Made by a program: the position numbers and the translations under genes. A DNA stretch of 64,000 nt from Candidatus Micrarchaeia archaeon (GTDB lineage: Archaea; Micrarchaeota; Micrarchaeia; Micrarchaeales; CABMGC01), in NCBI GenBank assembly GCA_049976845.1, contig JBMFHL010000001.1, positions 43,435 through 107,434 of the forward strand. The letters run 5' to 3'. Shown here in pieces: positions 32,750-39,543 of the stretch. Every line of letters starts with the position of its first letter. Positions within the stretch are counted from its first letter, which is position 1. The notes below the pieces were generated by a model that worked only from the letters and a program-made list of their open reading frames with translations, searched no databases and was not told where the DNA came from.

Positions 32750-32961
32750 TCTGTCACAGCAAACTACTATACTATTTTACAATCCTGCTTATAAATTTAA
32801 ACAATGACATATTTTAACGACAAATCCTAAAAATAAAGATACCAATATATAACTTACGCATTAATTATCTTTAAACATCTCTGCATAATCTTATAGATGC
32901 TTAGATAGACAATAAATATACCAAATGCATAAATATACAAGAATGAATTAGGTAGGTGAAG

Positions 32962-35900
32962 ATGTCTTTGCTGCTTGTAATAATAGAGGCTTTTTTCTCA
33001 ATAGTAGTGCCAGGAGTATTGTTATCACTTGCACTGCTTAAGAAGACAAAACTCCCTATGTTTGAGATAGTTGTGATAGGCTTCATACTCGGGCTCATCT
33101 TCCCTCCAGTGATGGTATGGCTTGAATCCTACTTAATCCCTTACATACATGTTTTTTCATTTTCGGGTTCGCTTTACAACATAAATGTTGTACTGCTTAC
33201 TATATTAGGTATAATACTGTGCTTTCAGCAGAAAGTATTTACCAAGAATCAGATTAAAAAACTCCTTGGCCCAGAAAGCTCAGAATCAGAAGCAAGGCAG
33301 AAATATATCGCATCTTCGAAGGAGAGCATAGCATTGCTGAGAAATGAGCTTTCAGAGATAGGTATAGGTTTAGAGTTGACCAAAAAGCACGAAGCAGAGG
33401 AAAAGGAGCTTGAAAAGAAGCATGAAACAGAAGAAACCCTTCTTTCAAGCATGAGTGAAGAAGAGAGAAACAAAATCTTAAACCTTCACAAGGAGGAAGA
33501 GAGGAAGCTTATAGAGGAGCACGAAGCAGAGGAAAAGGAGCTGCTAAAAGTACACAAGGAAAAGAAAGAAGCAGGAATGCCGATAGTGTGGACTATACTA
33601 CTGCTTCTAATGGCGCTTTCATTTGTGACAAGAATAGTAAACATAGGCGTAGCTCCAAACTATTTTGAATTCGACCCTTACTATGACATGATAAGTGCGC
33701 AATATATATTGACCTACGGGTACCAGTTGTTGTATGACCATTCTGCGTGGCCCACGCTTGCAAATGGAACAATACACAGAATACAGCCGATAGTGCCATA
33801 CCTAGAAGCATACTGGTACGATTTAGCGAATACACACGCAGCGTCAGCGACTAGCGTAGACACAACACTATTAAGCTTGGTAAGCAGCTATTACCCTCCA
33901 ATCATGGCAGCACTGCTAGTTTTTGTGGTATTCATGCTGCTCTATCACGAATACGGCCGCTTCCCAGCATTGGTAGGTGCTTCGATTGCGGCAAGCATGC
34001 CGGCGCTGATAACTACATTTATTGCAGGAGAGCAGCTGCTTGAGCCTTGGGGTATCTTTGCGATGTTCTTCTTCTATGCTGCATATCTGCTTGCCGTGAA
34101 TAACACGAAAGAGAAAAGGTTTGCAGTACTTGCAGGCATAGCCTATGCATCAACATTCCTCGGTGCCCACTACTATACAGTTACTGCTGGGGTACTGGCA
34201 ATATATATAGTGCTCCAAGGCATAATACACGTTCTCAAGAATGAAGACATGCGCGAGTTTTACAAGGTAAACGCAATTGTAATAGCAGTGTTCACAATAT
34301 TCTATCTTTTATACATGCCCTACTCAGCAACGCTAACCGAAAGAATTCCAAATGTGATAGGCATACCCGTAATAATCGCATTTCCTCTCTTTGCGCTGAT
34401 ATTTGCCTTTGTATTAGAATATCTGTCCAGAAGGTATTCAAAGCTTATAGAAGGAAACAAAGTAGCTATAGCAATAGCATCTATAATCTCAATCATAGGC
34501 ATATTTGTAATAGCAGTCGAAGTGCTTCTGGGCAGGTTCAATAAAGATATAAAAGCGCTATCTAGGTTCAGCGTTGCATCGGTTCTAGGCTTTATAATAC
34601 TCCTTCTAATACTCCTGACTCCGCTAGGCAAGCCTGTAGACAAATACGTTGCATTGAGCACACATTTCATAACGCCTTCAATACCTTTGTTCATGACGGT
34701 GCAAGAATATGAACCGACAGGCATAAACTTCAATTTTGGCTCTGCAGGCTTCGGTATAATAGGTTTGAGTATAGGTGGCGTTAATATATTGTTGTGGCTT
34801 ATACTTGCGTTATTCACTGCATTTGAGCTTGCCGCAATATACTACAGGAATTCAAGGATAAGCATACTGATGCTTGCTGCTGTTTGGCCTCTTGCAATAG
34901 CTGGTATGGTAGAAGTGAAATACCTGCCACACTTCGGTGTAGGTTACATACTTGCAATTGGCGTCATAATAGGAGAACTTATAATGTTCGTAAAGAACGG
35001 CTATAGCTTTAATCCTAAGAAATCTGAGCCTTACAATAAACAGGCACTTAACGGACTCTATGCGATAAGCATATTTGTAATCTTATTAGAAGCCACTTCG
35101 CTAATCTCTGTATTCTCAGCAGCAATGAATCAAAATTGCAATGCAATAATTTCAAGCAACAATGCAATAGGATATGATTTGTTCTGCAATCAAGTGCCTA
35201 ACTACTGGCTTTCAGCAACCAACTGGATGCGTGCAAATGTCGGTCCTTTCGGGCCAAGAATACTATCCTGGTGGGACTACGGCGACTGGATTAACTGGTT
35301 CGGAAACAGCAACGCAGTGCTCAGAGGGGACAATGCAGTTGCGACACTAGACTATGCAACCGCAGCTCAATATGTTCTAGGTCCAGCTGATGGTTTCGGT
35401 GCCGGAGAAATTGCCAATTTCATGAATAATGTTGTGCAAGCTAAATATCTACTATTGGATGATCAAATAATGCCTAAATGGGGTGCCCTCGACTTCCTTG
35501 CATGCATAGATGTAAACGAGACAAGTATGCAGTATGCCGAAGCACAGGGCGCAGCTGAGAATCCGCCACAGCCTTATGCGCTTGGCACTTCTTCGTGCGA
35601 ACTGAATCACGATCCCATATTTGCATTGGTTCCATTTAATGCAACCAGCATAAGCAGCTACTGCCAGTTTTCAAATTCTACAGTAACAGCAGTGAAGTTG
35701 TTGCTTCTGACGGGCAATCAGCAATATGTAAATGGCACCTACTGCCTGCCGACAAGCTTTTACAATTCTACAAAACCTGTTAACTTATACAATTCAAAAG
35801 GCGTAAAAATAGCCAACGCGTTTATAATACCCAACGGGGAGTTCTACTATGGTCCCGTAAAAATTTACGGGCAGGAATTCCTTGACTTTATGGTTGTATA

Positions 35901-36153
35901 TACCCCGAATGGGCCAAATGAAACGATAACGAATGCGCCATCAGAGTTCTATTCATCAAACTATTATAGGGGCTTCTTCTTCGGAAAGCTACCCGGGTTC
36001 TCCCTAGTGTATCCAAAGAATTTTACAGGCATAAACTATATCAACTCTACAAACCCTATAATGATACTTCAGCTTAACAACTATTCAGGTAAATTACCAT
36101 ACGTAACCCCAAAGCCAAGCTGGGTAAAAAATAATTACACAATGCCTGGTTGA
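32962..36153 (+). CDS. aglB: Oligosaccharyltransferase AglB (STT3) with N-terminal extension
   Basis: EFDPYY, TVQE and WWDYG motifs; multiple TM helices. Confidence 0.92.
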   Translation: MSLLLVIIEAFFSIVVPGVLLSLALLKKTKLPMFEIVVIGFILGLIFPPVMVWLESYLIPYIHVFSFSGSLYNINVVLLTILGIILCFQQKVFTKNQIKKLLGPESSESEARQKYIASSKESIALLRNELSEIGIGLELTKKHEAEEKELEKKHETEETLLSSMSEEERNKILNLHKEEERKLIEEHEAEEKELLKVHKEKKEAGMPIVWTILLLLMALSFVTRIVNIGVAPNYFEFDPYYDMISAQYILTYGYQLLYDHSAWPTLANGTIHRIQPIVPYLEAYWYDLANTHAASATSVDTTLLSLVSSYYPPIMAALLVFVVFMLLYHEYGRFPALVGASIAASMPALITTFIAGEQLLEPWGIFAMFFFYAAYLLAVNNTKEKRFAVLAGIAYASTFLGAHYYTVTAGVLAIYIVLQGIIHVLKNEDMREFYKVNAIVIAVFTIFYLLYMPYSATLTERIPNVIGIPVIIAFPLFALIFAFVLEYLSRRYSKLIEGNKVAIAIASIISIIGIFVIAVEVLLGRFNKDIKALSRFSVASVLGFIILLLILLTPLGKPVDKYVALSTHFITPSIPLFMTVQEYEPTGINFNFGSAGFGIIGLSIGGVNILLWLILALFTAFELAAIYYRNSRISILMLAAVWPLAIAGMVEVKYLPHFGVGYILAIGVIIGELIMFVKNGYSFNPKKSEPYNKQALNGLYAISIFVILLEATSLISVFSAAMNQNCNAIISSNNAIGYDLFCNQVPNYWLSATNWMRANVGPFGPRILSWWDYGDWINWFGNSNAVLRGDNAVATLDYATAAQYVLGPADGFGAGEIANFMNNVVQAKYLLLDDQIMPKWGALDFLACIDVNETSMQYAEAQGAAENPPQPYALGTSSCELNHDPIFALVPFNATSISSYCQFSNSTVTAVKLLLLTGNQQYVNGTYCLPTSFYNSTKPVNLYNSKGVKIANAFIIPNGEFYYGPVKIYGQEFLDFMVVYTPNGPNETITNAPSEFYSSNYYRGFFFGKLPGFSLVYPKNFTGINYINSTNPIMILQLNNYSGKLPYVTPKPSWVKNNYTMPG
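33386..33542 (+). repeat. Exact 25-bp direct repeat inside aglB
   Basis: AGCACGAAGCAGAGGAAAAGGAGCT at 33386-33410 and 33518-33542 (encodes HEAEEKEL). Confidence 0.9.
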
Positions 36154-36154
36154 T

Positions 36155-37300
36155 ATGATGAAACTTGTGCTAGCGCAGCCCTACCTGACATTGAAGGGTG
36201 GCGCAGAGAGGGTAATACTCAAGATAGCGCAGCATTACGATGCCAAAATATATACAACAGAGTATAACAAGGAAACAACCTTCCCAGAATTTGCAGATGT
36301 TGACATAGAATTAATAAAAAAGAAGGTCCCACTTTCAGGCATGCTCCCATACAGGGCATCGCAAGGCCTTAGATACGGCTACACTTTTTATAATACAAAA
36401 ATAAAAGACGACTACGACTTGATAAATTCACACATATCTCCAAGTGAGTGGATAAGGCACAAAAATAGCAGCGTGTTATGGTACTGCCACACACCTCCTA
36501 GAGAGGTGTATGATCTCTATTCTGTAAGAATGAAAAATAGGAGCTACACCGAGAAGTTCATATATGCGACGCTAACCAATTCATACAAGTTCATAGCTAA
36601 TAAGGTAGTAAAGGAGCTTGAGGGCATAGCAACAAATAGCAACAACACCGCATCGCGCATCAGAAAATACTTCGGCAGAGAAGCAACTGTAATAAATCCT
36701 GCTGTAGACTACAAGAAATTCAAGGACGAAGGAGACAGCAAATACTTCCTATATCCCTCTAGGATAATATCAAACAAAAGGCAGGATTACGCCATAGAAG
36801 CGTTCAAAAAATTCGAGAAGAAAGTAAAAGGCTACAAGCTCATAATTGCAGGTGTAGTTTCAAAGGATAAGGAGCACATCGAATATTTCGAGAAAATAAA
36901 GCGCATTGCAGATGATAATGTAGAGTTCAAAATAGGCATAAGCGAGCAAGCAATGCTAAACCTATATTCAAAGTCTACTGCAGTGTTGTTTGCAGGCATC
37001 AACGAAGATTTCGGTTATGTGCCCCTGGAAGCGATGGCAAGCTACAAGCCTATAATATCAATAAACGAGGGCGGCCCTAAAGAAACAATAGTAGATGGAG
37101 AAACAGGCTATCTAGTAAATTCAACCGACGAAATGGCTTCTAAAATGCAGTTCATAGCAGAACATCCTTTAATTGCAGCTGAGATGGGAAAGAAAGGCAG
37201 GAAGCGCGTGGAGGAAAAGTACAATTGGGAAGTATTCTTCAAAAAATTTGATAAGCTTGCATTGAGCGTAATCAAAGAGAAAAGAGAAGAGAAAGAGTGA
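36155..37300 (+). CDS. Glycosyltransferase family 4 (Alg2-like)
   Basis: GGAERV, YCHTP, EDFGYVPLEAMA, GGPKETI. Confidence 0.92.
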   Translation: MMKLVLAQPYLTLKGGAERVILKIAQHYDAKIYTTEYNKETTFPEFADVDIELIKKKVPLSGMLPYRASQGLRYGYTFYNTKIKDDYDLINSHISPSEWIRHKNSSVLWYCHTPPREVYDLYSVRMKNRSYTEKFIYATLTNSYKFIANKVVKELEGIATNSNNTASRIRKYFGREATVINPAVDYKKFKDEGDSKYFLYPSRIISNKRQDYAIEAFKKFEKKVKGYKLIIAGVVSKDKEHIEYFEKIKRIADDNVEFKIGISEQAMLNLYSKSTAVLFAGINEDFGYVPLEAMASYKPIISINEGGPKETIVDGETGYLVNSTDEMASKMQFIAEHPLIAAEMGKKGRKRVEEKYNWEVFFKKFDKLALSVIKEKREEKE

Positions 37301-37309
37301 AGGATCTAA

Positions 37310-37606
37310 TCAAGAAGTAATAACATATTTTGATATAACCTTAGTTGCATACCCTAAGACTCTCTTTATATCTGCTTCAGTGCTAGAACCTGTGCAGATT
37401 AGTTTGCCATTCTTGAACAGTATTATAACAGCCTTTGGCTCCTTTATCCTAAATATCGCTCCAGGGAACTGCTCAGGCTCATAATCTACCTCCTTCACGT
37501 TCTTAGACAAAGCATATAAATCTATAGTAGCGTGAAGATCCGAGCTAACCACAATATTTTGTATCTTTATTGCAGGTTTCATGTTTAATACGCGTTTCTG
37601 TTCCAT
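37310..37606 (-). CDS. Single-repeat (monopartite) TATA-binding-protein-like protein
   Basis: IQNIVVS...YEPEQFPGAIFRIKEPKAVIILFKNGKLICTG; only one TBP repeat in 98 aa. Confidence 0.9.
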   Translation of the reverse strand: MEQKRVLNMKPAIKIQNIVVSSDLHATIDLYALSKNVKEVDYEPEQFPGAIFRIKEPKAVIILFKNGKLICTGSSTEADIKRVLGYATKVISKYVITS

Positions 37607-37633
37607 GGAATCAAATATTTTATTGCTGTAACA

Positions 37634-37650
37634 GTTTATTAATCTTTCTA
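37634..37650 (-). promoter_or_regulatory. BRE/TATA-like promoter of the half-TBP gene
   Basis: Minus-strand AGAAAGATTAATAAA about 30-40 nt upstream of ATG 37606. Confidence 0.5.
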
Positions 37651-37887: not shown

Positions 37888-39543
37888 ATGGCTGAAAATC
37901 AAATTGGCGCAGGACAACAGTATCTAATACTCCCAGAAGGAGCAACAAGACTTTTGGGAAGGGAAGCACAGAGGACTAACATAGCAGTAGGCTATGCAGT
38001 AGCTAGTGCAGTAAAAACAACATTGGGACCTAAAGGCATGGACAAAATGCTGGTAAGCGAGCTTGGAGACATAGTTATAACAAATGACGGAGCAACCATA
38101 CTTGAAGAGATGAATGTAGAGCATCCTGTTGCAAAAATAATGGTAGACATAGCCAAAACGCAGGACAAAGAAGTCGGCGATGGCACAACGACTGCAGTTA
38201 TCATAGCAGGGGAGCTTCTGAAGGCTGCGGGAAATTTGATAGAGCAAGGCATACACCCAACTACGATAATAAAAGGATATAAAATGGCAGCATACAAGGC
38301 TCAAGATATTTTGCGTGAAAAAAGCTTTGACATATCTATGGACAATGAAGACAAGCTTGAGAAAATAGCAATGATAGCGATGGGCTCAAAGAACATAGGC
38401 AGCGACAGCACAAAGAAATATCTTGGCAAGCTCGCAATACAAGCAATAAAGCAAGTCTCTGTACAGAATGATGGCAAAATCTCAATAGACCACGACTTCA
38501 TAAAACTAGAGAAGAAGGAAGGTGGCAGCATAGAAGACACCGAATTTATAAATGGCGTTCTTATAGACAAGGAAATAGCGCATCCTGGCATGCCAAAGCA
38601 AGTGAAGAATGCAAAGATAGCATTGCTTGATGTGGCATTGGAGATAGAGAAGACAGAAACAGATGCAAGAATTGAGATAACAAGTCCAGAGCAGATGCAG
38701 TCGTTCCTTGCGCAAGAGGAAAAGATGCTAAAGGAGATGGTAGATAAGATAGCAAAGAGCAAGGCCAACGTGATCTTCATACAGAAGGGCATAGATGACG
38801 TTGCACAGCATTACCTTGCAAAAGCAGGAATACTTGCCGTGAGAAGGGTTAAGAAGAGTGACATGGAGAAGCTCTCAAAGGCAACGGGGGCAAACCTTGT
38901 GACAAGCCTTGACGATCTCAACCCAGAAGATTTGGGCTATGCAGGAATAGTAGAAGAGCGCAAGATTGGCGGAGAGCAAATGGTCTTCGTAGAAAAGTGC
39001 AAGGATCCAAAGAGCGTCACAATATTCATAAGAGGCAGCACCCAACAAGTAGTTAATGAAGTAGAAAGGTCTTTGAACGATGTAATAGGTGCATTGTCAA
39101 GTGCTGTGGAAGAAGGCAAGTATGTGATAGGTGGCGGCAGCATTGAAGTTGATATAGCAAATGGCCTCAGATCTTACTCTAGTGATGTAGGTGGCAGAGA
39201 ACAGCTAGCAATACAGGCGTTTGCGGATGCAATAGAAATAGTGCCGAAAACTCTTGCCGAAAGCGCGGGCATGGATGCAATAGACACCTTGGTACAGCTC
39301 AGGAGCAAGCACAAGGGCTCAGAAGGCCGTGTATACGGCGTAGACGTATTCAAAAATGCTATAAATGACATGGAGAAGCAGGGTGTCATAGAGCCGCTAA
39401 AGGTAAAGGAGCAAGCAATAGCAAGTGCAAGCGAAGCATCAGAAATAATATTGCGCATAGACGACATGATAAGTTCTAGGAGCAAAGCCCCTTCGGGCCC
39501 AGCTCCAGGAGGCGAAGGCGGCATGGGTGGCATGGAAGACTAA
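37888..39543 (+). CDS. ths: Thermosome (group II chaperonin) subunit
   Basis: [27 protein letters not shown]-type tail. Confidence 0.97.

Follow-up and report, generated by a model that had tools for sequence, protein, structure and literature searches.

TATA-binding protein (TBP) is a two-repeat protein made by duplicating a single fold, according to the accessible text of PMC4802759. The window analyzed here, a stretch of 64,000 nucleotides of a Micrarchaeota genome (G000), contains an ORF for a TBP of 98 aa with a single repeat (tbpB, paralogue B; 37310..37606, minus strand), which raises the question of whether, and in what form, half a TBP can serve a cell. As argued below, tbpB very probably encodes a functional half-size TBP subunit in a group without two-repeat TBP, and this subunit would dimerise to rebuild the saddle.

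The translation of tbpB gave one PF00352 stretch, residues 13–94, covering model positions 2–85 of 85 (E = 1.3e-24), as proposed in a previous sequence-only reading of the locus. Both intercalating phenylalanines (F47, and F64 in LFKNG), the asparagine N17 of the QNIV motif and the acidic stirrup YEPEQFPG (residues 42–49, including F47), all named in that reading, were present together with an ICTG motif; the S1 strand (residues 13–23) is the predicted dimer interface. The mixture of N- and C-repeat features noted there was also found, but it is not a mosaic peculiar to tbpB, as the pattern FPGA...LFKNGK..C[TS]G is common to nearly all Micrarchaeota repeats, single or fused. The best solved relatives of the product were archaeal TBPs, each aligned at both repeats.

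On the 3′ side there is no room for a second repeat, since the stop of a convergent GT4 glycosyltransferase gene (36155..37300, plus strand) lies 9 nt from that of tbpB. On the 5′ side, the divergent thermosome subunit gene (37888..39543, plus strand) starts 281 nt upstream of tbpB, and a profile of 102 repeats run against the whole genome at E ≤ 10 returned only two matches, so that no remnant repeat lies upstream of tbpB. A GT4 match on the opposite strand was a frequent syntenic neighbour, present in most of 80 tbpB orthologue loci, and a thermosome gene adjoined the orthologues in a minority of loci only; both are a matter of synteny, which lends no support to a functional tie. Directly upstream of the GT4 gene (32956–36153, plus strand) is a gene for a 1065-aa membrane protein with a weak STT3/AglB match (E = 0.065), probably a divergent oligosaccharyltransferase.

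A BRE/TATA-like element, GAAAGA-TTAATAAA, had been suspected upstream of the ORF and was recovered with the genome's own promoter matrix, obtained by an EM fit to about 300 upstream regions of G000. The box GAAAGATTAATAAACT (37633..37648, minus strand; 42 nt before the tbpB ATG) scored 9.3 bits, above 89% of 293 upstream regions, and this score was reached by 16 of 1000 shuffles. The same fit located the BRE-TATA motif of the genome 35–47 nt before start codons.

The G000 assembly (731 kb, 52 contigs, 90% complete) contains exactly two TBP repeats, in separate, unlinked ORFs on different contigs: B and a second half-gene, tbpA (A; 102 aa, contig C2), with 48% identity between the two. These were the only matches of the profile search over the whole 90%-complete assembly (E ≤ 10), with no two-repeat TBP among them; thus, of the two genes that the earlier reading had considered, a full-length TBP was not found and a second half-gene was. 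A full-length TBP could still lie in the sequence missing from a 52-contig assembly at 90% completeness, and the relatives on single contigs argue against one: G023 and G058 carry A only, and G032, G039, G117, G125 and G207 carry A and B only, without a two-repeat TBP in any of the seven, a single contig not being proof of closure.

One gene for TFB was found in G000 (L003:706-1794, G000:C30); in its product of 362 aa, the zinc ribbon is preceded by about 60 additional N-terminal residues, many of them Lys, Ala and Ser. tbpA is divergent from an operon that we take to comprise rpl21e, rpoF and a DUF655 gene. A short intergenic region (L001:1410-1473, G000:C2) separates tbpA from the rpl21e-like gene and contains an AT-rich, near-palindromic box, AATATATATAAATAT, a candidate bidirectional promoter.

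The nearest 80 B orthologue loci showed 73–94% identity, with one TBP match in each (80/80). After three of them were left out of the dN/dS analysis, dS was saturated in 67 of 77 pairs (median pS 0.83, pN 0.11), and the other 10 pairs gave a median dN/dS of 0.042. A behaved like B, with a dN/dS of 0.044 in 13 of 22 pairs; B is under strong purifying selection, and neither gene is decaying. Two deflating explanations offered with the sequence-only reading, namely full-length syntenic orthologues with neutral decay in this genome and an assembly error, found no counterpart in these loci, the second because single-repeat orthologues occur in other genomes. The assembly is a draft, and two public DNA runs cover only a small share of the stretch, as a truncated pseudogene or assembly artefact would allow; such an origin can practically be dismissed against 80 single-repeat orthologues elsewhere, purifying selection, conserved synteny and a promoter-like box.

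In 94 B sequences, the residues V19, F47, P48, F64, K65, T72 and G73 were kept at 99–100% (F47, F64 and V19 at 100%, T72 and G73 at 99%), as was the stirrup YEPEQFPG. N17 was lost from B in 3 of 59 genomes; the N17C changes are in G141, G175 and G195, which belong to one genus, and I18R at the predicted centre of the dyad was seen in two other loci (G124 and L072).

The distribution of these genes was followed in 201 Micrarchaeota genomes, two unpublished ones (G038 and G211) counted; 196 had a TBP match, and kin genomes are not independent. Two tandem repeats in one frame were found in 62 of 66 genomes of nine families (f4, f5, f6, f8, f9, f13, f19, f21 and f23), the other four being partial or broken. 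Single-repeat genes only were found in 40 genomes of 14 families outside the window's order, three of them with 2–3 separate copies, and an HMM check of 29 such loci gave one domain each. In the window's own family, f1, 21 of 34 genomes had one TBP match, and the 11 that were typed were all A, including the single-contig G023 and G058; the remaining 13 had two or more. In the sister family, f3, two or more unlinked halves were present in 53 of 54 tested genomes, five of them single-contig.

Several loci outside this pattern were recorded. One f7 genus carries 2–3 unlinked, very similar single-repeat genes (L117–L119 in G120; also G138 and G163). Canonical two-repeat TBPs lie on short contigs (3.7 and 8.4 kb) of two genomes of the order that also carry A and B (L143, G006:C77; L144, G157:C43), probably by contamination or transfer. 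An in-frame TAG was reported within one repeat of a tandem TBP in f9 (G194:C1:31427-31948). No clear stand-alone half-TBP was found among 12 loci on viral contigs; 11 were two-repeat, and one (L418:1703-2250) has two adjacent repeats in separate stop-to-stop frames of 98 and 82 aa. Three IMG/VR contigs of 150–166 kb each encode a PolD large subunit and a two-repeat TBP (L256/L411, L257/L419 and L258/L414).

The single-contig relatives with A alone imply a homodimeric TBP, since A must act as a homodimer where it is the only TBP. A dimeric single-repeat TBP, one of the possibilities raised by the sequence-only reading, is supported because no full-length TBP was found in G000, some relatives have one half-gene, and a homodimer model of B passes.

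The history of the repeats was examined in an unrooted tree of 129 repeats and 90 columns under LG+G4. Nine near-duplicate f1 A loci, five near-duplicate proteins and six outgroup proteins with long branches or odd composition were omitted, with thinning to 141 rows. The bootstrap had not converged completely; in this tree, the 89 Micrarchaeota-type repeats, whether single, fused-N or fused-C, all lay on one side of a branch with support of 100/99, apart from the canonical N- and C-repeats. The B clade and the f3-A clade each reached 100/99, and A and B together made up one side of a branch with support of 93.

These groupings bear on whether A and B might be the N- and C-halves of a split canonical TBP gene, working as an obligate heterodimer. 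Two halves per genome in most of the order would fit such a split, as would Q16 of B, which is like C-repeats, and E16 of A, which is like N-repeats. In AU tests on a 52-row subset, the single constraints were borderline and not all rejected (B with canonical N, p = 0.063; B with canonical C, p = 0.063; A with canonical C, p = 0.056; A with canonical N, p = 0.048). However, the joint topologies (B within canonical N and A within canonical C, or the reverse), whose constrained trees came from a fast search, were rejected with p-AU of 0.009 and 0.012, the clade of 89 repeats and the A+B branch speak against a split, and A stands alone in single-contig genomes. The single clade for all Micrarchaeota repeats and the rejected split topologies argue for A and B as paralogues, and a split of a canonical gene is very improbable. 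The earlier suggestion that B is one part of a split TBP is therefore right in that a second half-gene exists, and wrong as to descent from the canonical N and C repeats.

For the fused Micrarchaeota TBPs, too, descent of the N repeat from canonical N and of the C repeat from canonical C was rejected (p = 0.0012 and 0.0088). Both repeats carried the FPGA/FKNGK signature in 114 of 115 two-repeat TBPs related to P0006, several of them named Diapherotrites at NCBI. Two-repeat forms have arisen anew. P0002–P0005 are natural tandem copies of f1-type A; in P0004, on a 138-kb contig, the two repeats differ at 9 of 88 residues as counted by eye. Together with L014 (G024:C39:11027-11422), they represent recent events in which half-gene A was duplicated again in tandem to yield a two-repeat TBP, although the tandem of L014 could be an assembly artefact, because the contig stops in the first repeat, whose visible end is identical to the second.

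On the DP2 species tree, the nine fused families formed one clade (99). The repeat tree had at first suggested at least five independent duplications, a count that was dropped given this single clade and the fact that a single fused-N clade was not rejected (p = 0.14). When the tree was rooted with four PolD proteins from viral contigs, single-repeat lineages fell to either side of the root; an alternative root beside the fused clade was not rejected (p = 0.153). Either an early loss of one repeat was followed by several re-duplications, or homogenisation of the repeats came first and more than one loss came later; in either history, a symmetric TBP switches back and forth between the one-repeat and the two-repeat state.

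A more far-reaching history would be that the Micrarchaeota/Diapherotrites clade never went through a canonical two-repeat TBP and descends from a single-repeat homodimer predating the N/C duplication; the fused forms and A/B would then each have repeated, independently, the duplication and the rise of lobe asymmetry. The unrooted tree, with canonical N, canonical C and this clade, is compatible with such descent; we regard it as improbable, secondary reduction or homogenisation being more parsimonious.

B itself required five changes on the DP2 tree, interpreted as a single gain followed by about four losses, some of which are perhaps due to incomplete assemblies. The widespread half-gene A would have been duplicated in the common ancestor of f1 and f3, giving rise to B; some f1 lineages would since have lost B, leaving A to form a homodimer by itself.

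A first AF2 run, with 30 close orthologues, reached a pLDDT of 54 and was superseded by one with a 102-row alignment, in which the B monomer was a TBP lobe at pLDDT 94, with residues 11–17 unpaired. The model agreed with TBP lobes at an rmsd of about 1–2 Å, the canonical archaeal TBPs of S. acidocaldarius (1MP9), P. woesei (1PCZ/1AIS) and M. jannaschii (2Z8U) giving 1.1–2.0 Å. Canonical archaeal TBPs share with B the intercalating Phe pair, the S1 Asn, the TG motif and the acidic stirrup, and G000 has the matching BRE-TATA promoters and TFB. In contrast, canonical TBPs have two repeats per chain, whereas B has one, comes from a genome with two paralogous half-genes and lies outside the canonical N and C clades. 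B thus combines the lobe, DNA face and stirrup of a TBP with the lack of a second repeat, and on these features it would function in a TBP-like manner.

Since the B chain holds one repeat, the S1–S1′ junction must be intermolecular. The homodimer model suggested by the earlier reading passed, with an ipSAE of 0.53 against 0.00 for the best control; 20 of 30 homodimers of known structure attained this mark, as did 1 of 23 single chains. The runs of the model shared at least 75% of contacts, and pLDDT was at least 86. The chains dock via residues 7–26 and helix H2, joining the S1 strands across the dyad (contacts 18-18′ at the dyad, 16-19′, 15-20′, 13-21′ and 84-13′). This geometry is, we assume, that of the lobe–lobe junction of solved TBPs, so the pass may be memory, arising from likeness to those structures. 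The model suggests that B may dimerise as a saddle, and the genetic argument from genomes with one half-gene and no other TBP is the stronger one for a dimeric TBP. Single-repeat chains would pair by their first strands, S1 running antiparallel to S1′ across the two-fold and helix H2 lying on the partner's S1. The rebuilt saddle would bind the TATA minor groove, with an acidic stirrup offered to TFB on each side.

When the two paralogues were compared, B differed from the other groups at I13, Q16, V20, H25, I62, N/S75 and L84. Position 62 was I in 94 of 94 B sequences and L in 113 of 113 other Micrarchaeota repeats; the other DNA-facing changes are V60 and N or S75 in place of K. At the interface, B has I13, V20 and L84, where A has F/Y13, A20 and I84. 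Through a plant TBP in the same alignment, positions 60 and 62 of B align with yeast residues that we take to be V203 and L205, so that I62 would be a change at a base-reading position. The altered-specificity yeast mutant TBPm3 carries I194F, V203T and L205V, as given in the accessible text of PMC1636458. B and A thus differ at the equivalents of 203 and 205; unlike TBPm3, B is an archaeal half-TBP with a natural L-to-I change, which may affect specificity.

These changes could mean that B is an alternative TBP, comparable to the several TBPs of haloarchaea, which acts as its own BB homodimer and whose TATA preference has shifted, with housekeeping left to AA. The passing model (0.53 versus 0.00), the coordinated changes at 13, 20 and 84, the seemingly self-complementary I13/V20 pair, the altered DNA-facing residues at 60, 62 and 75 (60 and 62 being two of the three TBPm3 sites given in that part of PMC1636458) and the dispensability of B in several f1 lineages all agree with it. 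Set against these are the central Asn missing from B in 3 of 59 genomes, a loss that would affect the two lobes of a BB dimer at once, a reciprocal swap between A and B at position 20, the degradation of A where B is always present, and promoter matrices that are similar in G000, which has A+B, and in G058, which has A only. We consider this alternative-TBP role possible and rather unlikely.

The swap, A20V with V20A, was seen in 3 of 59 A/B pairs and is a single event; in G082, B has V20A without a matching change in A. Identity of A to single repeats of other orders was 0.62 in A-only genomes, 0.60 in f1 genomes with A+B and 0.53 in f3, figures that ignore phylogeny. A correlation of A and B rates (rho 0.72, n = 49) was rejected as a sign of co-evolution, being confounded by shared history. 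Co-retention in f3 (53/54), the faster drift of A, the position-20 swap and the loss of N17 in B are weak hints that B pairs with A in G000, re-creating lobe asymmetry, to which we would give roughly an even chance. BB dimers in G000, hinted at in few ways (the model pass and the I13/V20 pair), are a less probable alternative, and a mix of AA, AB and BB is another.

B might instead have a regulatory role, titrating TFB or poisoning A dimers without binding promoters itself. A nearly invariant stirrup, an accessory gene with about four losses on the DP2 tree and the lost lysine at position 75 would suit this role. Yet the DNA-binding face is kept at 99–100% in 94 B sequences at a dN/dS of about 0.04, and a decoy need not retain that whole face; this makes a regulator improbable, and the pure TFB-titrating decoy considered in the sequence-only reading is disfavoured for the same nearly invariant residues.

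A functional half-size subunit, whether in AB or BB form, raises the matter of orientation. Archaeal TBP binds symmetrically and TFB sets the direction (PMC6640164, in its accessible part), so that orientation is no obstacle to a symmetric dimer; TFB on BRE would set the direction of transcription here as well. The promoter matrices of genomes with A+B (G000), A only (G058) and fused TBP (G079) looked alike. More symmetric TATA boxes, predicted for single-repeat genomes, were not seen in these three, with asymmetry values of 0.138, 0.123 and 0.083, respectively. In a further single-repeat genome, G103 (L299–L318, G103:C1:1-400000), no fit was obtained, and no clear AT-rich TATA peak appeared upstream of called genes, unlike in the three other genomes, which may be a start-calling artefact. 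With single-repeat genomes no more symmetric than the fused one and the G103 fit failing, promoters lend no support.

Stand-alone single TBP domains of 82–136 aa are described in the accessible text of PMC3597702 for halobacterial TbpA and Thermococcales monopartite proteins, in species that also have a full TBP. According to that text, the Thermococcales proteins are listed beside full-length TBPs and are highly diverged, and TbpA is not essential and closely resembles the full-length TBPs found in its own species. In contrast, the half-genes described here are the only TBPs found in G000 and its seven single-contig relatives, occur in many families and are strongly conserved. The two-repeat TBPs of other Micrarchaeota families and Diapherotrites share the FPGA/FKNGK signature and the clade with B and differ in being fused, via re-duplication or repeat homogenisation. 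Single-lobe archaeal TBP versions are mentioned in one sentence of the accessible part of PMC7221094, and in that of PMC8407392 TBP is listed as conserved in DPANN, its size uncommented. No description of a single-repeat TBP of Micrarchaeota was found in the open literature, a scope that leaves aside subscription journals and supplements, such as that of PMC7221094, which might list such sequences.

Taken together, transcription in many archaeal lineages appears to rely solely on single-repeat TBP, and short TBP calls in Micrarchaeota genomes should not be taken as fragments. One phylum shows the full series, from one half-gene through two diverged half-genes and old fused forms to very recent re-fusions. 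These natural proteins make it possible to test whether a perfectly symmetric TBP can initiate with BRE alone for direction, what benefit lobe asymmetry brings, and whether AA, AB and BB dimers could differ in the promoters they recognise.
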